From UHGV virus genome UHGV-0098635: a stretch of 39,409 nt of DNA, one strand, 5' to 3'. The first letter of the stretch is position 1. Each line of letters begins with the position of its first letter. The DNA is from a virus. A program made the translations under genes and the position numbers. The notes beneath the pieces were generated by a model. The model saw nothing but the letters and a program-made list of their open reading frames with translations. It had not been told where the DNA came from and made no database searches. Below, piece by piece: positions 2,282 through 35,349 of the stretch.

Positions 2282-3099
2282 ACGTACATATCCTGTTTAC
2301 GTGCCCAGTCAGGGCGTTTAATAATTTCCACTCCGCCCCATTCATCGTTGATGCGGCATTCGTGATAGGTATTCAGATCCCGGCGGAACAGAGCGTGCCC
2401 GGCATCGACATCTGGCGCATCCAGCTCGAACACGCGTACCGGATACCGACCACAATCAATGCTTTCGCTCACGGCAAGAAAGAAAAAACCATGCGGCTGA
2501 CCAGTAACCCTCATTGCGCCTTCGCGGTACATTGCGTCCTGCACGTGGTAGCGGAATTCCTCGATGTGGCGTGCAAAACGGTCCATATCTGCAACCTTTT
2601 TCACGTCGACGATCACGTTGTGCTCGTTCAGCCATTTGTCTGGACGAATTCGGCACAACTCACCCGTCTCTTCATCGTTCCAGTACATTGATGCTTCGCA
2701 GTAACCAGGTGCTTCCAACATCCAGCGTGCCGCCGGATGAGCCATTGCGCTATCACGCATCAGCTCCAGTTTCCGCCACTGCTCGGCATCAAGTACCGTA
2801 ATCCCCATATCCGCCACATCACGAAGAAATGCCTCTTCGTCAGCTTTACCTTGTTTCGTCCGACGATCGAATTTCGGTGAAACAATGAAGCGTTTGTCGA
2901 ACTCTCCAGGCTCCAGAAGCAGACAGTGCAATGCGGTTCCCATATCCAGTGCAGACTTTTTCTCTTCGTCTTCTGGTGCTGCCTGAACCCATTTAAGAAG
3001 CGCCGGATTCTTGGCAACCATGTCCAGTTGCGACTTACTCACGCCGTCACCGGCGTGGTAGTCTTCGTTGCTGATGTCGAAATAAATTCCCGGTTTCAT
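2278..3099 (-). CDS. PD-(D/E)XK exonuclease (RecE C-terminal-like, partner of RecT)
   Basis: 273-aa ORF; the N-terminus MKPGIYFDISNEDYHAGDGVSKSQLD is typical of phage PDDEXK exonucleases; start and stop overlap the flanking genes; RBS GAGGGA upstream. Confidence 0.75.
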   Translation of the reverse strand: MKPGIYFDISNEDYHAGDGVSKSQLDMVAKNPALLKWVQAAPEDEEKKSALDMGTALHCLLLEPGEFDKRFIVSPKFDRRTKQGKADEEAFLRDVADMGITVLDAEQWRKLELMRDSAMAHPAARWMLEAPGYCEASMYWNDEETGELCRIRPDKWLNEHNVIVDVKKVADMDRFARHIEEFRYHVQDAMYREGAMRVTGQPHGFFFLAVSESIDCGRYPVRVFELDAPDVDAGHALFRRDLNTYHECRINDEWGGVEIIKRPDWARKQDMYV

Positions 3100-3395
3100 G
3101 CCGCGTCCCTCTGTCCATCAAGCTGATCCGCCAGATCCCAGCGGGCGATAATTGCCATTGCCTCTCGCCGATAGGCATCCATCAGTTCTTCGAACTCAGG
3201 GCTGTCTTTAGCAGCCTCCAGTACTTCCTGACGAACGCCTTTGCCTGTTACAACGTCGAAAGTTGAGGACAGTTGATGAAGTCGGATGCTCTCAATCAGT
3301 TCGACTTGTCGGTCATATAGCTGTTCTGACAGGCGGTAGTCCTTGTCGAATGCCAGCATGATTTTTTGAAGATTTTTCTGCTGATTAACGTTCAT
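3096..3395 (-). CDS. hypothetical early protein
   Basis: ORF in the leftward early operon; start taken as the ATG at 3395 (MNVNQQ) with GGAGG 7 nt upstream, not the longer track start. Confidence 0.6.
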   Translation of the reverse strand: MNVNQQKNLQKIMLAFDKDYRLSEQLYDRQVELIESIRLHQLSSTFDVVTGKGVRQEVLEAAKDSPEFEELMDAYRREAMAIIARWDLADQLDGQRDAA

Positions 3396-3569: not shown

Positions 3570-3646
3570 TTACCGTTGAGGTAATGATTATGCGTATTTG
3601 GTTTGGTGTCAATAGATATGAGTTAAAAAAATTACCCTTAAGGTAA
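3570..3646 (-). promoter_or_regulatory. candidate leftward early promoter flanked by two TTACC-N5-GGTAA operator palindromes
   Basis: Minus-strand TTGACA (plus 3607-3612) and CATAAT (plus 3587-3592), though the spacer is only about 14 bp. Palindromes at 3570-3584 (TTACCGTTGAGGTAA) and 3632-3646 (TTACCCTTAAGGTAA). Confidence 0.5.
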
Positions 3647-3703: not shown

Positions 3704-4288
3704 TTATTGTTTGTTTTTTTCGTTCTGGTTGATGACAAATTCAATGTAACTTTCGATCTTTGCTTTCTCGGTTTCGGGTAACAATGCGTAGCGCGAGCGG
3801 TCATAGTTGATGGTCGCAGGGTCGTGCGGGTGAATCAGTAATTCATAGCCGTGACGCCCGAATGCGGATGCAACATTCTCCAGGGTGGAAATGGAAACGC
3901 TGACCTCATTGTTTAACAGGCGGCTGATTGTCACCTGGGCGACGCCGGATGCGCGGTGAAGTTTTCCCTGTGTTGAAAGGTCGCGGCTTTCGCTCATCCA
4001 GCGTTCCAGGTTGTGAGCCGCCAGCTGACCAATGTCGCTTGGGCCGACAGGCTGAAAACCTTCCTGAGAAAGCGAGCGATCGATATCAAGCCAGTTACGG
4101 GGTTTATTGGCGGCAGCTTCAATTTTTCGCGCAACCTGGTCGCCGATAACCTTCTTGCCAAGAGCCCAGCGGTTTACCAGATTTGCCTGAGTTCCAAGTT
4201 TTTCTGCCATCCGCGTCTGAACACCATTGAATTCACGGTCGATCAAGTCGTTGAGATTTTGCCTGCGGACGTCCTGGATACTTTTCAT
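3704..4288 (-). CDS. phage repressor, CI-like role, two HTH regions, no S24 peptidase domain
   Basis: 194-aa ORF divergent from a Cro-like gene. HTH-like segments at residues about 25-45 and 110-140. No Ser/Lys autoprotease motif (no GDSM-type segment). Confidence 0.7.
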   Translation of the reverse strand: MKSIQDVRRQNLNDLIDREFNGVQTRMAEKLGTQANLVNRWALGKKVIGDQVARKIEAAANKPRNWLDIDRSLSQEGFQPVGPSDIGQLAAHNLERWMSESRDLSTQGKLHRASGVAQVTISRLLNNEVSVSISTLENVASAFGRHGYELLIHPHDPATINYDRSRYALLPETEKAKIESYIEFVINQNEKNKQ

Positions 4289-4343: not shown

Positions 4344-4406
4344 TTACCCAACAGGTAAATGCACCCCATAGGTAACTATCCTTGATTTTTGTTACCTTAT
4401 GGGTGA
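4344..4406. promoter_or_regulatory. tripartite operator cluster between the repressor and Cro-like genes
   Basis: TTACCCAACAGGTAA (4344-4358), imperfect GCACCCCATAGGTAA (4361-4375), TTACCTTATGGGTGA (4392-4406). A candidate rightward promoter TTGTTA-N17-TATTAT overlaps the third site. Confidence 0.6.
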
Positions 4407-6674: not shown

Positions 6675-6751
6675 TTACCTGTTGGGTAATAAAATATTCT
6701 AAACTCTATTGATTTCGTGTCTTATGTGGTTTTTAATTACCTTAGAGGTAA
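6675..6751 (+). promoter_or_regulatory. composite regulatory module upstream of the nin-like operon
   Basis: TTACCTGTTGGGTAA (6675-6689), CTTATGTGGTT (6721-6731), TTACCTTAGAGGTAA (6737-6751) ending 3 nt before the ATG at 6755. Confidence 0.5.
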
Positions 6752-10634: not shown

Positions 10635-10676
10635 CATGGTACTATTACCACAACGGTAACTATTACCACGGTGGTT

Positions 10677-13782: not shown

Positions 13783-13859
13783 TGGCGTGGCATGCAGGAT
13801 TCGAACCTGCGACCAACCGCTTAGAAGGCGGTTGCTCTGTCCAACTGAGCTAATGCCAC
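13783..13859 (-). tRNA. tRNA-Arg, anticodon UCU (reads AGA)
   Basis: Hand-folded 77-nt cloverleaf: 7-bp acceptor stem GTGGCAT/ATGCCAC, D-arm GCTC..GAGC, anticodon loop CTTCTAA, T-arm GCAGG-TTCGAAT-CCTGC, discriminator G, encoded CCA. Confidence 0.85.
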
Positions 13860-14181: not shown

Positions 14182-14258
14182 TTACCTGAAAGGTAATAAT
14201 TCGCGCGTTAAATGTCAACTGTCTACGATAAATAAATCATATGTGGTTAAATTGGTAA
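14182..14258 (+). promoter_or_regulatory. composite regulatory module upstream of the portal operon
   Basis: TTACCTGAAAGGTAA (14182-14196), CATATGTGGTT (14237-14247), GGTAAT half-site (14253-14258). Confidence 0.5.
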
Positions 14259-19993: not shown

Positions 19994-22446
19994 TGGCTAT
20001 CAGTTGGATCCAGCCCAGCTTTGCCGGTGGTGAGATTGGACCGTCGTTGTACGGTCGTATCGACATGGCGAAGTACCAGGTGGCATTGCGCAAGTGCGAT
20101 AACTTTATCGTGCGGCAGTATGGCGGCGTTGAGAATCGACCTGGTACGCGTTTTGTCGGTGCCGCCAAATACCCAAATCGGAAATGCCGCCTGATCCCGT
20201 TCCAGTTCTCGACGGTTCAGACTTATGCTCTGGAGTTCGGACACCAGTACATGCGCGTTATCAAAGATGGTGCGTTGGTGCTGAACAGCAGCAATGTTAT
20301 TTATGAAATTGCCACGCCATATACTGAAGCCGATCTGTTCCGAATTAAATTCACGCAAAGCGCAGACGTGCTTACGCTGGTTCATCCGGCATACCCGCCG
20401 AAAGAGTTGCGCCGCTATGCGCATGACAACTGGCAACTGGTTGATGTGGTAACGAAGAACGGGCCATTTGAAGATATCAATATTGACGAGTCAGTGACGG
20501 TTTATGCCAGCGCCAGCACCGGGACAATTACGTTAACGGCAAGCGCCTCAATTTTTGGCGCGGAGCAGGTAGGCAAATTGTTCTATCTGGAACAGCCTGC
20601 AGTGGATTCTGTGCCGGTATGGGAAACCAGTAAGAGTACGTCGATTGGCGATATTCGCCGTGCAGACAGTAACTACTATCGCGCCGTTACAGCAGGCAAA
20701 ACAGGCACTTTGCGCCCTTCGCATACAGAAGGCACATCATGGGATGGCTGGGGCGGATCCGGTGATGATGATACCGGCATTGAGTGGGAGTATCTGCACA
20801 GTGGTTTTGGCATTGCCCGTATCTCTGCTGCAAATGGAACTACTGCAACTGCCGAGGTGATTTCCTATATCCCTTCGCAGGTAGTTGGCGAGGATAATGC
20901 CAGCTATAAATGGGCTAAATATGCCTGGAACAGTATTAACGGTTATCCTGGCACTGTTGTTTATTATCAACAACGCCTTTACTTCGCCGCATCGACTGCG
21001 TTCCCTCAGACTATCTGGGCCAGCCGTACCGGGGATTATAAGGATTTTGGCAAAAGCAATCCTACGCAGGATGACGACAGAATTATCTACACCTATGCCG
21101 GGCGTCAGGTTAATGAGATCCGCCACCTGATTGATGTCGGTTCGCTGGTGGCACTGACTTCCGGAGGTGAGTACGTCATCACCGGCGACCAGAACAAAGT
21201 GTTAACCCCATCATCATTTGCATTCAGCTCTCAGGGATCAAATGGCTCGAGCAATGTCCCACCAATTGCCGTGGCGAATATTGCTCTGTTCGTCCAGGAG
21301 AAAGGCAGTGTTGTCCGTGATCTGGCCTACTCATTCGATGTTGACGGCTATCAGGGGAACGACCTGACCATCCTTGCCAATCATCTTTTTCAGAAGCACA
21401 GCATTGTTGACTGGTGCTTCTCTATTGTCCCTTACTCCAGCGCCTTCTGCATTCGTGATGACGGTAAATTACTGGTGATGACCTATCTGCGTGATCAACA
21501 GGTTTTTGCATGGGCACCACAGTCCAGTACCGGAAAATATGAAAGCACATGCAGTATCAGCGAAGGCAATGAAGATGCGGTGTATTTCGTCGTTAACCGA
21601 ACCGTTAACGGGCAAACAGTGAGATACATCGAGCGACTGTCCAGCCGTTTATTTACCAGCGATGAAGATGCTTTCTTTGTTGATTCTGGCCTTAGCTATG
21701 ATGGAAGAAATACGTCTGACAGAACGATGACCATCACTGGTGGTTCTGGTGAATGGGATTACCGCGCGGAATATACAATCAGTGTTTCTGGTGGTGCGTA
21801 CTTCACCAGTAGTGATGTCGGTGCGCAACTACAGTTCCCTTATACCGGCGATGAAGTGTCAAAAGAATTACGTTGCGACATTATTTCTGTAACCAGCAAT
21901 ACCGCAGTAGTGGTTCGTGCTAACAGGAACGTCCCGCCATCCCTCAGGAATGTGGCTACCACAAACTGGCAGATGGCGCGCCGGACATTTGGCGGCTTGT
22001 CTCATCTTGAAGGCCAGACCGTAAACATCCTCTCTGATGCGAACGTGGAACCACAAAAAGTGGTTTCCGGAGGTGCCGTCACGCTGGAATCACCGGGGGC
22101 TGTTGTGCACATCGGCCTGCCAATAACTGCTGAATTCGAAACACTGGATATCAACATTAACGGACAGGAAACGCTGCTGGACAAAAAACAGGTGATCCCG
22201 TCCGTTACTCTGGTTGTGAATGCCAGTCGCGGCATCTGGGCGACTACGCCCGGCGGTAAATGGTACGAATATCCACAGCGTGAATTCGAGTTCTACGATG
22301 ATCCTGTTGATGACGCTACCGGAAAAGTAGAAGTGAAACTGGACAGTAACTGGGGCAAAAACGGACGTGTAAAAATCCGTCAGCTTGACCCGTTGCCGCT
22401 GTCTGTTCTTGCCGTTATTCCTCGCCTTACTGTTGGGGGATTCTGA
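19993..22446 (+). CDS. tail nozzle, T7 gp12-like (tail tubular protein B)
   Basis: 817-aa ORF in the gp12 position; call rests on size and synteny. Confidence 0.6.
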   Translation: MAISWIQPSFAGGEIGPSLYGRIDMAKYQVALRKCDNFIVRQYGGVENRPGTRFVGAAKYPNRKCRLIPFQFSTVQTYALEFGHQYMRVIKDGALVLNSSNVIYEIATPYTEADLFRIKFTQSADVLTLVHPAYPPKELRRYAHDNWQLVDVVTKNGPFEDINIDESVTVYASASTGTITLTASASIFGAEQVGKLFYLEQPAVDSVPVWETSKSTSIGDIRRADSNYYRAVTAGKTGTLRPSHTEGTSWDGWGGSGDDDTGIEWEYLHSGFGIARISAANGTTATAEVISYIPSQVVGEDNASYKWAKYAWNSINGYPGTVVYYQQRLYFAASTAFPQTIWASRTGDYKDFGKSNPTQDDDRIIYTYAGRQVNEIRHLIDVGSLVALTSGGEYVITGDQNKVLTPSSFAFSSQGSNGSSNVPPIAVANIALFVQEKGSVVRDLAYSFDVDGYQGNDLTILANHLFQKHSIVDWCFSIVPYSSAFCIRDDGKLLVMTYLRDQQVFAWAPQSSTGKYESTCSISEGNEDAVYFVVNRTVNGQTVRYIERLSSRLFTSDEDAFFVDSGLSYDGRNTSDRTMTITGGSGEWDYRAEYTISVSGGAYFTSSDVGAQLQFPYTGDEVSKELRCDIISVTSNTAVVVRANRNVPPSLRNVATTNWQMARRTFGGLSHLEGQTVNILSDANVEPQKVVSGGAVTLESPGAVVHIGLPITAEFETLDININGQETLLDKKQVIPSVTLVVNASRGIWATTPGGKWYEYPQREFEFYDDPVDDATGKVEVKLDSNWGKNGRVKIRQLDPLPLSVLAVIPRLTVGGF

Positions 22447-30951: not shown

Positions 30952-31464
30952 CTATGCAGGCTTTTTGGATTTGTACGAATAATCCCACGGATAAACATTT
31001 CTACTAAGCGGAGCTGTATTCGTTCGTTCATGAAATAATTTTGTGAAATTCAATACGGAATCCATCCAAACTTTTGCGTTAGCTTTGGTGTGTGCGGGCG
31101 GGTCCCAATAAGCTAGTAAGGCTGCATCTCTTATTTCATTGACTGCATATATGAGATATGCGTTACTGGTTGGTTTTGGCCTGTAATTTCCTTGTTCATC
31201 AATCAATCCATATGACCACTCATCCCAACACTGTTCAGTACATGAGTATGAATATGATGCATATTCACCAATATTGACATGAACCTTTCTGAGATGGAAA
31301 CCTAATACTTCGTCTGGTCTTTCAAAAAGAGTATCTTTTCCCAGATCAGGATGATGACCATGACGCCAGTGTTGTTTAAAAGCATCTTTTAGCGAAATCA
31401 GAAAGTCATCAGTTTTAAACTCACCAGTAGGTATAACCTTCCCGCTATACTCACTCAAAAACAT
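30952..31464 (-). CDS. candidate toxin (weak YafO-like resemblance) of a two-gene accessory module
   Basis: 170-aa ORF overlapping the upstream gene by 14 nt; the segment GKDTLFERPDEVLGFHLRKVHVNI loosely resembles the YafO core FGRDALYD...KFERVAHIHL (recalled). Confidence 0.5.
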   Translation of the reverse strand: MFLSEYSGKVIPTGEFKTDDFLISLKDAFKQHWRHGHHPDLGKDTLFERPDEVLGFHLRKVHVNIGEYASYSYSCTEQCWDEWSYGLIDEQGNYRPKPTSNAYLIYAVNEIRDAALLAYWDPPAHTKANAKVWMDSVLNFTKLFHERTNTAPLSRNVYPWDYSYKSKKPA

Positions 31465-31777
31465 CGAATTCCTCTTCCTTCATATGCGTTTCTAATGAGT
31501 TAAGCTGGCGGAAAGATATCTCTTTTGATTCTGCAGATGAGAGCTTTTTTATCCGCTTTATATTCTTTGTGATAGGAATAGTCATTGTATGCACATCAGC
31601 GGATGCTCTTGGCTTTGTGCTGATAAAAATATGGCGCAATGCCGCATTTTCACTATTGAACGAGCCAATAGCTGATTTACGTGCTACAACCTTACCAGTA
31701 AAAATACGACTCTTGCTACGCTTTGCATGAGTTCCGCTTCTTACCGGACCTCTCATCACGAATCCAAGTTTTGTCAT
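31451..31777 (-). CDS. basic small protein, candidate antitoxin/partner
   Basis: 108-aa basic ORF, first gene of the operon, with GGAG RBS and an operator palindrome about 45 nt upstream. Confidence 0.5.
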   Translation of the reverse strand: MTKLGFVMRGPVRSGTHAKRSKSRIFTGKVVARKSAIGSFNSENAALRHIFISTKPRASADVHTMTIPITKNIKRIKKLSSAESKEISFRQLNSLETHMKEEEFDVFE

Positions 31778-31819
31778 CTTTAATCTCCGGTAAGTTACAG
31801 GTATAAAATAAAAACAGGT

Positions 31820-31834
31820 TTACCTTTAAGGTAA
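31820..31834 (-). promoter_or_regulatory. operator-like palindrome upstream of the accessory operon
   Basis: TTACCTTTAAGGTAA. Confidence 0.5.
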
Positions 31835-31906
31835 TAGTACGCTATTCACCCCCAGTCTGCAATCTGTACAGAATTATTTAAAGGCACATCCCTGTGCCGC
31901 CGCCCG

Positions 31907-32563
31907 TCAGAAGAACCCTGCCTTGTCGTTGATGTACTCCGCGTGGGTCTGGATATCACGCAGGCATTTGCTCACACCGACGATGTAGCAGAACATGGTG
32001 GTCAGCTCCGCCGCCGCGCCCGATACGTCGTGCCCGTCTTCCTGTAACTGGTTCAGCAGATTCATCAGCAGTGAGTTCTCCGTCAGGCCGAGAACACCAG
32101 ACGGAGAATGAATCAGGCTGCGGTAGCCGGGCTTCAGTGGGGCGCTGTATTCTTTTTTGTCTTCCAGCTTGATCGCCTCCATAATGGCGGGCATGAAGCC
32201 TGACAAGACCTTCTCCACTTTTGTTTCTTGTTGTCTTAAACGTTTCTCGCATTCAATGAAGTAGCGTCGCACCTGGCGACCTTTTTCGTTACGCTCGACC
32301 ATCGCCAGCTCTTTGGCTGTATCAAGGGTGAGGTGGTACTCTTTGCGGTTGTGGCCGCCTCTACCAGATGTTTGCTTTCCCAAATTGGAAAGCAAAATAT
32401 AGTCTTGATTTTCAATGAATTCGTATTCTGATATGCGATTTGTAATCCATGCTGCAAACACCTTTTTAACACCTAAAAAAGCGTGCAGATCGCGGGCATT
32501 ACAAAGTAGGGCTGTTTCGTTAGATATAGTGCCGTTGAATACGGGGATGAGTTGAGCGTTCAT
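31907..32563 (-). CDS. phage antirepressor, AntA-type N-terminal domain
   Basis: The N-terminus [32 protein letters not shown] matches the AntA/Ant antirepressor pattern; the C-terminal roughly 80 aa are paralogous to the ORF at 32881-33138. Confidence 0.75.
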
Positions 32564-32723
32564 GATGGCGTCTCCACTTAGCGAATTACATCACCACCGC
32601 TGAGACCAATCAGATGGTGGTGAACTGAACGGAGTTGGTCTTACCGGCCTAAGTGGTACCGGCGTCCTTTCGGACCCCCATTCAGCCCACCATAATTCTG
32701 GCATGACTGTGCTATACGCATAA

Positions 32724-32801
32724 AAAAACCACGTCTGGCGTGGTATGCGCCACTTAGTAATCCGGGAGACCAATCCCGGCACTGGATTTTGCCAGTGCCC
32801 G
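32724..32801 (-). ncRNA. structured non-coding segment with terminator; candidate small RNA or attenuator
   Basis: Minus-strand series of stem-loops: GGCACTGG/CCAGTGCC (plus 32780-32801), CCGGGA/TCCCGG, then CCACG-CCAGA-CGTGG followed by T7. The track ORF here (32591-32914) is judged spurious. Confidence 0.3.
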
Positions 32802-32834
32802 ATTACTATGGCACAAGAGGAGTGCGATGTAAAT

Positions 32835-32849
32835 TTACCGCAAAGGTAA
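32835..32849 (-). promoter_or_regulatory. operator-like palindrome
   Basis: TTACCGCAAAGGTAA. Confidence 0.5.
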
Positions 32850-32880
32850 ATATAAGCACTCATCTTGGTAATTTCAAGCC

Positions 32881-33138
32881 TTATCTGGTTTGTTTTCGTA
32901 ATTGTTCGGCACAATAGTCGAGATGTGTTTGCAGATCCCGCATAGACATCTGTGAGCTGGTGACGTAGTTAATCAGTGCAGTCAGTTCGGCAAGTGGGCC
33001 ATCGACATTAAATCCATCCTTATCGAGATCCCGGAGTAATTTCATCAAGTGCGATCCCTCCACTAGTGATCTGACGCCTCCCGGCGTGTGAATCCTTTCG
33101 GTAAATCCGTCTTCCAGTGGATAGTGATACTGCTGCAT
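32881..33138 (-). CDS. small antirepressor-like protein, paralog of the AntA C-terminal domain
   Basis: Start taken as the ATG at 33138 (MQQYHY) with GGAGAA RBS. IHTPGGVRSLVEGSHLMKLLRDLDKDGFNVDG...MRDLQTHLDY aligns with the AntA C-terminus [32 protein letters not shown]...[10 protein letters not shown]. Confidence 0.6.
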   Translation of the reverse strand: MQQYHYPLEDGFTERIHTPGGVRSLVEGSHLMKLLRDLDKDGFNVDGPLAELTALINYVTSSQMSMRDLQTHLDYCAEQLRKQTR

Positions 33139-33159
33139 CTTATCTTCTCCATGCAATAA

Positions 33160-33175
33160 CTGTATATTTATACAG
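33160..33175. promoter_or_regulatory. LexA (SOS) box
   Basis: CTGTATATTTATACAG; with flanks AACTGTATATTTATACAGTA it matches the 20-bp LexA consensus TACTGTATATATATACAGTA at 18 of 20 positions; about 22 nt upstream of the start at 33138. Confidence 0.75.
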
Positions 33176-33214
33176 TATCAAATAATTTGTTTGCTATCCA
33201 GCACGTTTTGCAAA

Positions 33215-33280
33215 TTACCCGAAAGGTAATATCTATTCGTATTTACAGTCTTTCTATCCATATGTGGTTTTTCGGGTAAT
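33215..33280 (+). promoter_or_regulatory. composite regulatory module in the antirepressor/tailspike divergent region
   Basis: TTACCCGAAAGGTAA (33215-33229), CATATGTGGTT (33259-33269), GGTAAT (33275-33280). Confidence 0.5.
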
Positions 33281-33333
33281 AGAATAACCAGATATGCGGC
33301 GCAACGGGTGCTGCGACTATCTGGAGATTTAAC

Positions 33334-35349
33334 ATGACGGTCTCAACCGAAGTTGACCACAACGAATACACAGGTAACGGCGTTACGACATCATTTCCGT
33401 ATACCTTCCGTATTTTCAAAAAATCCGACTTGGTTGTTCAGGTGTCTGACCTGAACGGGAACGTAACAGAATTGGTTCTGGATACCGGTTATACGGTAAC
33501 TGGGGCGGGCACTTATAGTGGCGGTTCTGTTGTTCTTCCGTCGCCGCTTGCTGCTGGATGGCGAATTACGATAGATCGTGTGCTTGATGTAGTGCAGGAG
33601 ACAGACCTTCGCAATCAGGGAAAGTTTTTCCCCGAAGTGCATGAAGATGCCTTTGACTACCTGACGATGCTGATCCAGCAATGTTTTGGGTGGTTCAGAC
33701 GTGCATTGATGAAACCATCTTTGCTTGCAAAATATTACGATGCAAAGCAAAACAGAATTTCTAACCTTGCAGATCCATCACTTGAGCAGGACGCTGTAAA
33801 TAATCGCTCAATGCGTAATTATGTCGATGCTGCAATCGCCGGGGTTGTTGGTGGTTTTGGTTGGTTTATTCAGTATGGTTCAGGCGCGGTATATAGAACG
33901 TTTCAGGATAAGATGCGGGATACTGTCAGTGTTCTTGACTTTGGCGCTAAAGGTGATGGAGTCACAAATGATACAGATGCTTTCATTGCCGCGGCATCTG
34001 CTTCGCCACAAGGTGTTTATGTTCCTGATGGCACGTATTTATTGCCGGAAGATATTAATGGAAGATTTTATGGCCCAGGAAAAATAATTAAAGAGACAGG
34101 AGCGGAACGAATTCCGTTTACCAATGTAGCTCAGTCTCATAGCAACCTTATTTTAGGTTATGATGCCGCAAAAAATTACACTGACTCTGGTAAAGGTAAT
34201 CAATTGGTTTTGCTTGGACCAAGTTCTGGTCGCAACATAACTAGCGGCACTAACACAATCGTGGTTGGTGTGGGTGGTTTGTCAGGAGATACTCTAGAAG
34301 ATGATCTTACAGATAAGTCGCCATTTTCTGGAACAGAGATTATCAGTATAGGTATTAATGCTTTGAAGAAAGCCACCACTGGAAATAACATGATTGGTAT
34401 TGGCAGGGATGCGCTAAACGAGTGTAAGGATGGTAGGTTCAATGTTGCAGTTGGTATGTCAGCTTTGCAGCAACTCCATTCTGGAGAAGCTAATGTTGCA
34501 ATAGGACGCTCTGCAGGAATGCGTACTGGCATCTACACAGACCCTCAAGGTGTACGTCTTGGGTATAATAAATGTAATGGAAATACCCTTATTGGTAATG
34601 CAGCTGGTAGGGAGTTAAAGCAAGGTGATCATAACACAGCTATAGGTAATGGAGCATTGCGAGGAGTATCATCAACAGAGAACCCATACACTGGGACTCT
34701 CACAGGTAATTTTAATACAGCAATTGGTGTTGATGCTCTCAATTCCCTATCCTCAGGTGACCTGAATGTTATGATAGGTGCAAGAGCAGGAAGAAAATTA
34801 CCAACTGGAAATGGTAATATTTTTATAGGTCCAGATGCTGGTACCGGAATATCAGAAGATACCTCCAATAAATTCATTGTAAATAATCACAAAGGATTGC
34901 CTTTTTTAGAAGGTGTTATGGGAGGCGCACAAGCGGAAGATAACTATTTGCGTATAGATGGTAGTGTTGCCCCCCAGATGGATAATCAAAGAACTTGTGG
35001 TCAATCTAGTCGTAGATGGCAAACTGTCTTTGCAACTAATGGTGTAATACAAACATCTGACGGTAGATGTAAAGATGTGTATGAGATATCTACGGCAGAG
35101 TATAGTGCAGGGCTAGAATTAGCCATTAGCATGATAAAGTTTAAATGGACAGATGCAGAATCTGATAAGTATCACTTCGGATGTATGGCTCAAGAAGTAA
35201 TGCTGATTATGGAGAAATATAATCTTAACCCTACAGACTATTCTCTGGTTACTTATGATAAAGAATCGGATATGTATGGTGTAAATTACGCTGACTTATC
35301 TTGTTTCTGTATTGCAGCTATGTCTAAACATTTATTACGAAGTGCGTAA
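33334..35349 (+). CDS. tailspike/tail fibre: T7 gp17-like N-terminal adaptor, receptor-binding region, C-terminal S74-type self-cleaving chaperone
   Basis: The N-terminus (YTGNGVTTSFPYTFRIFKKSDLVV) parallels T7 gp17 (recalled). The C-terminus DGRCKDVYEI...MIKFKWTD...YSLVTYD fits the intramolecular chaperone pattern. The middle is AT-rich. Confidence 0.75.
   Translation: MTVSTEVDHNEYTGNGVTTSFPYTFRIFKKSDLVVQVSDLNGNVTELVLDTGYTVTGAGTYSGGSVVLPSPLAAGWRITIDRVLDVVQETDLRNQGKFFPEVHEDAFDYLTMLIQQCFGWFRRALMKPSLLAKYYDAKQNRISNLADPSLEQDAVNNRSMRNYVDAAIAGVVGGFGWFIQYGSGAVYRTFQDKMRDTVSVLDFGAKGDGVTNDTDAFIAAASASPQGVYVPDGTYLLPEDINGRFYGPGKIIKETGAERIPFTNVAQSHSNLILGYDAAKNYTDSGKGNQLVLLGPSSGRNITSGTNTIVVGVGGLSGDTLEDDLTDKSPFSGTEIISIGINALKKATTGNNMIGIGRDALNECKDGRFNVAVGMSALQQLHSGEANVAIGRSAGMRTGIYTDPQGVRLGYNKCNGNTLIGNAAGRELKQGDHNTAIGNGALRGVSSTENPYTGTLTGNFNTAIGVDALNSLSSGDLNVMIGARAGRKLPTGNGNIFIGPDAGTGISEDTSNKFIVNNHKGLPFLEGVMGGAQAEDNYLRIDGSVAPQMDNQRTCGQSSRRWQTVFATNGVIQTSDGRCKDVYEISTAEYSAGLELAISMIKFKWTDAESDKYHFGCMAQEVMLIMEKYNLNPTDYSLVTYDKESDMYGVNYADLSCFCIAAMSKHLLRSA

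Follow-up and report, generated by a model that had tools for sequence, protein, structure and literature searches.

A LexA-box antirepressor gene followed by isrK and C4 RNAs and a second, modular antirepressor gene in a phiV10-like prophage

Two antirepressor genes and a distant repressor gene

The virus genome UHGV-0098635 comprises 39,409 nucleotides (nt), and this whole stretch of DNA is referred to here as the window. On its minus strand lies an 85-amino-acid (aa) antirepressor gene, ant, preceded by a near-consensus operator for LexA (SOS box); ant is followed by two small RNAs, isrK and C4, and then by ant2, whose predicted product of 218 aa ends in a domain paralogous to Ant (Table 1). 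The locus and its surroundings (positions 31700-33400) were 98.8% identical in nucleotide sequence to Escherichia phage phiv142-3 and 90-94% identical to phiV10, ZX5 (E. coli phage vB_EcoP_ZX5), TL-2011b and other Uetakevirus podoviruses, the latter in two to three aligned pieces over about two thirds of the region. These matches identify the window as an E. coli prophage of the phiV10/epsilon15-like (Uetakevirus) type. Such prophages are common in E. coli, since part of the region was matched in 868 of 5,426 complete genomes, with at least 80% of it matched in 79.

The 85-aa open reading frame (ORF) that the first-pass annotation had reported at 33138-32881 on the minus strand was present, with GGAG 8 nt upstream of its ATG at 33138; a 91-aa version extended to a TTG lacks a Shine-Dalgarno sequence (SD), whereas the ATG has one, and was rejected as coding. 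Ant aligned with chain E of PDB entry 5D50 (“Anti-repressor protein”; E 1.4e-46, residues 2-84 aligned with 3-85) and was 86.7% identical to the annotated ant product of Salmonella phage SPC32H. No Pfam family was recorded for any of the listed Ant homologues, and a sub-threshold Pfam match of Ant to DUF724 (17.1 bits against 38.4) was rejected as noise. Most of the phage records inspected leave the small ant gene as a hypothetical protein.

The gene at 3704-4288 encodes a repressor, Rep, that had been described as lacking an autocleavage domain. This description was borne out: the only Pfam families matched were helix-turn-helix (HTH) families (HTH_3 and HTH_26, both above cut-off), and no Peptidase_S24 match was listed in the Pfam search. 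Rep aligned over residues 1-190 with chain A of 5D50 (“Repressor”; E 4e-42), and it was 100% identical to Rep of phiV10, ZX5 and phiv142-3 and 41.8% identical to that of SPC32H. We regard the sequence matches to 5D50 as decisive for the predicted folds.

The AntA-type label given earlier to the larger protein was confirmed by a Pfam AntA domain (PF08346) in residues 22-92 of Ant2, which scored 91.8 bits against a cut-off of 27 and which defines the N-terminal module only. Its proposed C-terminal paralogy with the 85-aa protein also held: BLASTP aligned Ant with Ant2 residues 137-210 without gaps (32 of 74 identities, 43%; E 6e-17), and the C-terminal part of Ant2 matched SPC32H Ant (5D50 chain E) with an E value of 4.6e-14. 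A match of Ant2 to 7OYC (E 5.5e-4) was low-complexity and unrelated, and was rejected. The last 80 residues of Ant2 (139-218) were identical to the C-terminus of ZX5 ORF4; the N-terminal halves of these two proteins do not align, the module of ORF4 being Bro-N (PMC9782041). The same C-terminal domain was also found on a Bro-N head in the sister phages Tyrion and phiV10 and in a Klebsiella phage. In phiV10 (DQ126339, positions 2512-3191) the Bro-N antirepressor p23 (194 aa) retains about 31 first residues of the Ant-like domain and is followed by p22, an ORF of 29 aa, so that the second antirepressor of phiV10 looks frameshifted or truncated.

Regulatory sites, spacer RNAs and the history of the Ant domain

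A near-consensus LexA box 22 nt upstream of the 85-aa gene had been proposed, and such a site was indeed found (Table 1). It was the sole site in the window within three mismatches of the 20-bp LexA consensus, and no such site arose in 100 shuffles. The 16-mer core ends 22 nt ahead of the ant ATG, and the box overlaps both candidate ant core promoters, whose hexamers were read by eye. When the upstream regions were aligned, TACTGT..ACAGT was kept in the window, phiV10, ZX5, SPC32H and Tyrion while the flanks drift, and the core was common to four genera; the box of the Klebsiella phage carries one change (ATGT). Over the 1,049 nt compared, SPC32H and SPC32N show two differences, one in the tailspike gene and the other an ACAG to AAAG change in the aligned LexA box. 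A point mutation in the LexA site is said to make Ant constitutive in SPC32N. Because Ant, Rep and the LexA box are orthologous to the SPC32H system, the small gene is, by these comparisons, the orthologue of a characterised LexA-controlled antirepressor; it is probably the original SOS antirepressor and did not derive from the large gene.

The spacer between ant and ant2 is 317 nt long and carries two Rfam RNAs, isrK and C4, on the same strand as both genes. From the ant stop codon to ant2, the minus strand shows no terminator-like site other than the isrK terminator. For the second of the two candidate isrK promoters, the predicted start lies near 32798, where the isrK match begins. In the minimum free energy fold of C4 (-41.2 kcal/mol) a' and b' were both unpaired; b' is exactly complementary over 8 nt to b1 and b2, and a' over 7 nt to a1 and a2. 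These pairing sites stand in a P1-like order, with a1/b1 upstream, a2/b2 downstream and b2 at the ribosome-binding site. Moreover, a1/a'/a2 and b1/b'/b2 change together across six phages (the window, phiV10, ZX5, Tyrion, the Klebsiella phage Kp4865 and Gifsy-1). On the a1 side the sequence is TTGGTCT in the window and Tyrion, TTGGCGT in phiV10, ZX5 and Gifsy-1, and TTGAGAC in Kp4865; on the b1 side it is CTAAGTGG in the window, CTAAAAGG in phiV10 and ZX5, CTACAAAGG in Tyrion and Kp4865 (the Tyrion b1 itself being CTACAGAGG, with a G-U wobble) and TCACCG in Gifsy-1.

Because a' and b' of C4 can pair with isrK and with the ant2 ribosome-binding region, and because these sites co-vary, the large gene appears to be under RNA control of the P1 immI and Gifsy-1 IsrK type and not under simple LexA control. 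The AntA-type gene had been described as lying just downstream of ant; the two genes do share a strand, but they do not form a simple LexA unit, since a terminator, two candidate promoters, isrK and C4 intervene. The frame corresponding to the Gifsy-1 leader ORF orf45 stops here after 3 codons. As this leader ORF is not kept, the simplest reading is that C4 would act by covering the ant2 ribosome-binding site directly with b'.

Other reading frames cross the spacer. One of 37 aa (MPELWWAEW...; 32591-32704, minus strand), in a frame other than that of orf45, overlaps the C4 RNA, and a RefSeq-style annotation of ZX5 places a 37-codon coding sequence named “ash family protein” over the corresponding C4 region. 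The frame is not conserved among relatives, and Tyrion lacks the ORF altogether, so that the annotated coding sequence is probably a side effect of the RNA gene. A 107-aa ORF with a TTG start (32591-32914) overlaps both small RNAs and was rejected as coding.

Dispersed over the window are 10 copies of a 15-bp palindrome, TTACC-N5-GGTAA, where 0.06 were expected; tolerating one mismatch raises the number to 13. The majority sit in intergenic spacers in front of operons. At the copy upstream of the ant promoter, ATTACC..GGT was invariant in six of six phages aligned. All five aligned Uetakevirus cassettes have kept the copy at the isrK promoters, which the Gifsy-1 isrK locus lacks. The SPC32H genome likewise contains 10 correspondingly placed copies, two of them in the rep-cro spacer and one upstream of ant (20013-20027). 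The dispersed palindromes are probably the operator set of Rep (or Cro), and from its positions TTACC-N5-GGTAA is probably the Rep operator, by which the imported cassette would be wired into the Rep regulon.

Only two copies of the Ant domain, ant and the C-terminal domain of Ant2, were found when Ant was compared with the window by tblastn; there was no third copy, and the two share 48% nucleotide identity over aligned codons. A neighbour-joining tree placed the stand-alone Ants and the fused Uetakevirus C-terminal domains in two sister clades, each with members from E. coli, Enterobacter and Klebsiella. The sister clades and the 48% identity indicate that the paralogy is old, and a recent tandem duplication was rejected on the same grounds. 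The family is small, with 65 representatives at E<=1e-3 among 1.84 billion proteins in an exhaustive HMMER profile search; this search recovered the full-length fusions, whereas a word-indexed protein search recovered the stand-alone Ants and not the fusions. Its members either are stand-alone proteins of about 82-96 aa or carry the domain as the C-terminal part of an AntA, Bro-N, Rha or ORF6N protein. In each of the 35 phage records with an Ant homologue, a copy spanned 80% or more of the 85-aa protein, and wherever the locus was inspected this copy was annotated as a stand-alone gene. A second copy was present in a subset only, where the fused copy accompanies the isrK-C4 cassette; SPC32H and other Salmonella phages have the stand-alone copy only, and epsilon15 ant also has no downstream gene. 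The first-pass annotation had regarded the stand-alone gene as a duplicate of the antirepressor C-terminal domain, and this distribution suggests that the direction is probably the reverse. The likely course of events is that a repressor-targeting domain suited to this phage group was gained, or retained, by a mobile antirepressor cassette under RNA control; loss of the C-terminus from the large gene is less likely.

Several single records showed further arrangements of the domain. The 84-aa protein P0138 is a natural chimera, its N-terminal half resembling the stand-alone Ant and its C-terminal half the fused lineage, which suggests recombination between the two paralogues. HEMP4 (OR424387) and TL-2011b (JQ011317) each have three Ant-matching places. 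In HEMP4 the AntA-type protein is 99% identical to that of the window and is encoded several kb from ant; this distance indicates that the fused gene moves between positions.

Table 1. Positions of the genes, RNAs and sites discussed (numbering of the window)
Feature	Position	Strand	Sequence or basis
rep, 194-aa prophage repressor, predicted Ant target	3704-4288	minus	HTH matches; 5D50 chain A
Palindrome upstream of ant promoter	33215-33229		TTACCCGAAAGGTAA; in spacer common with divergent tail-fibre gene
Candidate ant promoter 1	33200-33195 / 33177-33172	minus	TGGATA / TACTGT; by eye
Candidate ant promoter 2	33181-33176 / 33158-33153	minus	TTGATA / TATTGC; by eye
LexA operator (SOS box)	33158-33177	minus	TACTGTATAAATATACAGTT; 18/20 match to consensus TACTGTATATATATACAGTA
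ant, 85-aa small antirepressor, SPC32H Ant orthologue	32881-33138	minus	5D50 chain E match
Candidate isrK promoter 1	32877-32849	minus	TTGAAA-17-TATATT; promoter scan
Palindrome TTACC-N5-GGTAA, putative Rep operator	32835-32849		between the two candidate isrK promoters
Candidate isrK promoter 2	32833-32805	minus	TTTACA-17-tgCATAGT; promoter scan
isrK small RNA	32722-32798	minus	Rfam RF01394, 67.7 bits (gathering score 50)
a1 site	32773-32767	minus	UUGGUCU; in isrK
b1 site	32757-32750	minus	CUAAGUGG; in isrK
isrK intrinsic terminator	stem 32744-32728	minus	GC-rich hairpin, then seven T
C4 antisense RNA	32613-32697	minus	Rfam RF01695 (clan CL00128), 61.2 bits (gathering score 45); full-length match 1-87
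b' sequence	32656-32649	minus	CCACUUAG; loop of C4 hairpin 2
a' sequence	32641-32635	minus	AGACCAA; single-stranded junction of C4
a2 site	32609-32603	minus	UUGGUCU; ant2 leader
b2 site	32581-32574	minus	CUAAGUGG; ant2 leader, overlaps SD GGAG at 32575-32572
ant2, putative 218-aa modular antirepressor	31907-32563	minus	AntA residues 22-92; Ant-like C-terminal domain about 137-213
Palindrome ahead of next leftward genes	31820-31834		TTACC-N5-GGTAA
Palindromes in rep-cro spacer	4344-4358; 4392-4406		TTACCCAACAGGTAA; one-mismatch copy
Other TTACC-N5-GGTAA copies	3570-3584; 3632-3646; 6675-6689; 6737-6751; 10645-10659; 14182-14196

A proposed induction scheme and its alternatives

We think it probable that the locus combines a LexA-repressed Ant with a C4/isrK-gated Ant2, both acting on the non-cleavable Rep. 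In this scheme LexA, bound to the box over the ant promoter, would hold ant off; DNA damage would remove LexA and allow the 85-aa Ant to be made, and Ant would take Rep off its operators, so that the lytic cycle could start. In the solved SPC32H structure, an Ant tetramer reportedly binds two Rep dimers and Rep is taken off its operators. More generally, antirepressors of this type are produced once LexA is cleaved, and they bind and inactivate the repressor (PMC7380047). The SPC32H orthologues of Ant, Rep and the LexA box thus support the earlier proposal, in which SOS induction relies on an antirepressor under LexA repression and on a repressor that is not cleaved, as well as its option that the stand-alone protein is the actual repressor-binding antirepressor; the match to Gifsy-type prophages that came with it is an analogy only, since Gifsy-1 has no homologues of these proteins.

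Directly after ant the cassette runs in the order isrK (a1, b1 and terminator), C4 (a' and b'), a2/b2 and ant2. C4 would pair with a2 and b2 and, because b2 overlaps the ant2 ribosome-binding site, would leave ant2 untranslated; an RNA carrying a1/b1 of isrK would compete for C4 or refold the leader and thereby turn ant2 translation on. The RNA anatomy is observed, and the function assigned to it here is modelled on P1 immI and Gifsy-1 IsrK. Ant2, with its interchangeable N-terminal module (AntA here, Bro-N in sister phages), would then act through its Ant-like C-terminal domain, which most likely docks on the same Rep as Ant and is the probable specificity module of these modular antirepressors.

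These elements could be linked further, although the steps are speculative. Transcripts from the LexA-controlled promoter might enter isrK and stop at its terminator, so that SOS would also deliver a1/b1, and the probable Rep operator at the isrK promoters might let isrK and ant2 expression rise once Rep had been inactivated. In that case a1/b1 RNA would increase both with SOS and with falling Rep, and the resulting loop of feed-forward and positive feedback would lock induction in; IsrK could in addition provide an SOS-independent route to induction, as in Gifsy-1. A two-input, self-locking circuit of this type, made up of SOS-derepressed ant, an a1/b1 decoy and Rep-operator feedback, would be so far undescribed, and we put it forward as a tentative and rather doubtful proposal. 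If it were true, the Ant-like domain would be a portable “repressor-targeting” module carried on interchangeable AntA, Bro-N, Rha and ORF6N heads.

Several observations weigh against the combined LexA and C4/isrK scheme. The promoter scan reported no ant promoter, and the hexamers read by eye are weak and uncertain. LexA binding at the ant box and Rep binding by the antirepressor are both extrapolated from homologues; Rep is 42% identical to its SPC32H counterpart whereas Ant is about 87% identical, so that the contacts between Ant and Rep cannot be assumed unchanged. For Ant2, whose C-terminal domain is 43% identical to Ant, binding to Rep is a prediction from this similarity, and the ZX5 ORF4 overexpression data are crude, having been obtained with a glutathione S-transferase fusion and without a binding assay (PMC9782041). 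The palindrome is assigned to Rep from its position. Finally, the closed orf45 frame means that the mechanism of Gifsy-1 IsrK is not transferable in detail.

One alternative explanation for the LexA box is that it is a chance or unrelated AT-rich inverted repeat and that the small ORF is not SOS-regulated in E. coli. LexA binding here is a prediction from sequence, the -10 and -35 hexamers are weak, and the simple pattern CTGT-N8-ACAG, found at 33160-33175, is present three times in the window. However, matching the full 20-bp consensus to within three mismatches singled out this site in the window and none in the shuffled sequences, its core is kept in four genera although the flanks drift, and the aligned SPC32H box holds one of the two differences that separate SPC32H from SPC32N in the compared stretch, all of which makes a chance origin very unlikely. 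Granting LexA control, ant and the AntA-type gene might nevertheless be co-transcribed as a single LexA operon encoding two plain SOS-induced antirepressors, with the spacer RNAs playing no regulatory part. Both genes occupy one strand and are separated by 317 nt in which no further gene lies, and the isrK terminator of Gifsy-1 is partially read through (PMC4825925). Yet the spacer contains a GC-rich hairpin followed by seven T, two candidate promoters and two RNA families above the Rfam gathering thresholds, and the co-variation, from phage to phage, of the a/b complementarity at the ant2 SD would be difficult to account for if it served no function. Moreover, in SPC32H and epsilon15 no gene follows ant, so that ant is a self-contained unit. 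We therefore consider a single operon improbable.

The remaining alternative concerns the target of Ant2, which might not inactivate the resident Rep at all; it could instead form mixed oligomers with Ant that damp or tune induction, or be aimed at the repressors of other, heteroimmune Uetakevirus prophages, in the manner of Gifsy/Fels cross-talk. SPC32H Ant acts as a tetramer with which a paralogous domain could in principle co-assemble, the natural chimera P0138 suggests that the paralogues are structurally compatible, they have diverged to 43% identity, and antirepressors acting on non-cognate repressors are documented (PMC3121763). Set against this, overexpression of ZX5 ORF4, which shares the C-terminal 80 residues and an identical Rep, pushed the phage towards lysis: lysogens went from 1e9 to 1e6 plaque-forming units per mL and rep mRNA fell by 75% (PMC9782041). 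The C-terminal domain and Ant clades have also been kept together in phages of E. coli, Enterobacter and Klebsiella with differing Reps, and this co-retention is consistent with Ant2 serving the switch of its own phage. Nothing found here speaks for the tuning competitor that the first-pass annotation had offered as an option; the ZX5 fusion with the identical last 80 residues promotes the lytic cycle when overexpressed. We thus regard a competitor or cross-talk role for Ant2 as unlikely, and retain the scheme in which Ant and Ant2 both act on Rep.

Neighbouring genes and comparison with known systems

The annotated relatives have a common layout, with a tail-fibre gene running rightward and a small “hypothetical protein” and an “anti-repressor” running leftward. 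Within the window the antirepressor genes adjoin the tail-fibre gene and lie about 29 kb from rep. The divergent tail-fibre gene (33334-35349, plus strand) encodes a pectate-lyase-like domain and a C-terminal endosialidase-chaperone (Peptidase_S74) domain, and its N-terminus alone is common to epsilon15-like Salmonella phages. Downstream of ant2, two overlapping leftward genes of 108 and 170 aa (30952-31777, minus strand) occupy a stretch of low GC content (0.40) with a TTACC-N5-GGTAA palindrome just upstream. The 108-aa gene had no family match and the 170-aa gene a weak, sub-threshold match to YafO_toxin; RefSeq calls the homologue a YafO-family toxin. This pair looks like an accessory (moron) toxin-antitoxin-like pair. 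In phiv142-3 the first 120 nt of the 31700-33400 query had no match, and that record annotates different genes leftward of ant2. A phage-borne tRNA-Arg gene (anticodon TCT) lies at 13783-13859 on the minus strand, and SPC32H has a tRNA-Arg gene at the equivalent place (2788-2861).

The closest characterised counterpart is the Ant/Rep switch of SPC32H (Kim & Ryu 2013, J Virol; Kim et al. 2016, PNAS; PDB 5D50, 5D4Z). The two systems share an Ant that is about 87% identical, a Rep that is homologous over its full length, a LexA box at the same aligned position before ant, an ant gene divergent from the tail-fibre or tailspike gene, and dispersed TTACC-N5-GGTAA palindromes. They differ in that the Reps are only 42% identical, that SPC32H has no isrK, C4 or second antirepressor, and that its ant is directly followed by a convergent structural operon.

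The cassette resembles isrK-orf45-anrP of Gifsy-1 (PMC4825925) in having isrK with its terminator, a C4-family RNA and an antirepressor gene with a b2-covered SD, with the Rfam families in the same order; AnrP, like Ant2, is modular, with a KilA-N/Bro-like N-terminal module. In Gifsy-1 some transcripts pass the isrK terminator, and the long RNA that results is not translated (Hershko-Shalev et al. 2016, PMC4825925). Providing IsrK in trans increases the translation of anrP about 140-fold, an activation that works by way of orf45 translation, and AnrP induces the prophage (PMC4825925). In contrast to the window, the gene preceding the Gifsy-1 locus is antQ rather than an ant under LexA control, and no TTACC-N5-GGTAA palindrome is present there; the window, for its part, has not retained the orf45 frame, and AnrP (ORF6N domain) has no detectable similarity to Ant2 and was rejected as a homologue (best E 0.18). 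Searching the whole Gifsy-1 genome with Ant, Ant2 and Rep by tblastn gave nothing better than E 0.49, so that homology to a Gifsy-1 antirepressor or repressor was likewise rejected. GfoA and GfhA of Gifsy-1 and Gifsy-3 are small LexA-controlled antirepressors encoded outside the immunity region and acting on a non-cleavable repressor (Lemire et al. 2011, PMC3121763), and they and Tum of coliphage 186 follow the same logic by analogy only. The match to Gifsy-type prophages claimed at first is thus one of logic, with no homologue of Ant, Ant2 or Rep in Gifsy-1.

In the immI region of phages P1 and P7, a' and b' of C4 are complementary to a1/b1 upstream and to a2/b2 downstream, with b2 at the ribosome-binding site before the antirepressor gene, and the a/b changes between P1 and P7 define their specificities. 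On the account of Citron and Schuster (1990), as cited in PMC7313666, c4 RNA controls ant there. The window differs from P1 in that an icd-like leader gene is not conserved, the C4 target is the SD of the antirepressor gene itself, and the antirepressor protein is unrelated to P1 Ant.

The ORF4 “anti-repressor” of ZX5 (PMC9782041) lies at the same locus, its phage encodes an identical Rep, and its last 80 residues are the same as those of Ant2, but ORF4 carries a Bro-N module in place of AntA. That the fusion protein promotes the lytic cycle is supported experimentally by the ORF4 result alone. A term search of the ZX5 paper (PMC9782041) found neither LexA nor SPC32H in its text, and the record deposited by its authors lists the small ant as a “hypothetical protein” and annotates no RNA gene. 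In the literature searched on E. coli phages, the large Bro/AntA protein is treated as “the” antirepressor.

Each component of the locus has a characterised counterpart, namely the homologous Ant and Rep of SPC32H and, in P1 immI and Gifsy-1 IsrK, homologous RNAs with unrelated proteins, and no new principle is involved. The combination, in which an ant under LexA control is directly followed by a modular antirepressor gated by isrK/C4 and bearing a paralogous Ant domain, with both genes flanked by the dispersed phage palindrome, is undescribed in the literature searched. Linking the SPC32H Ant/Rep structure to the riboregulation of P1 and Gifsy-1 gives a concrete, testable wiring diagram for the induction of phiV10-like prophages.

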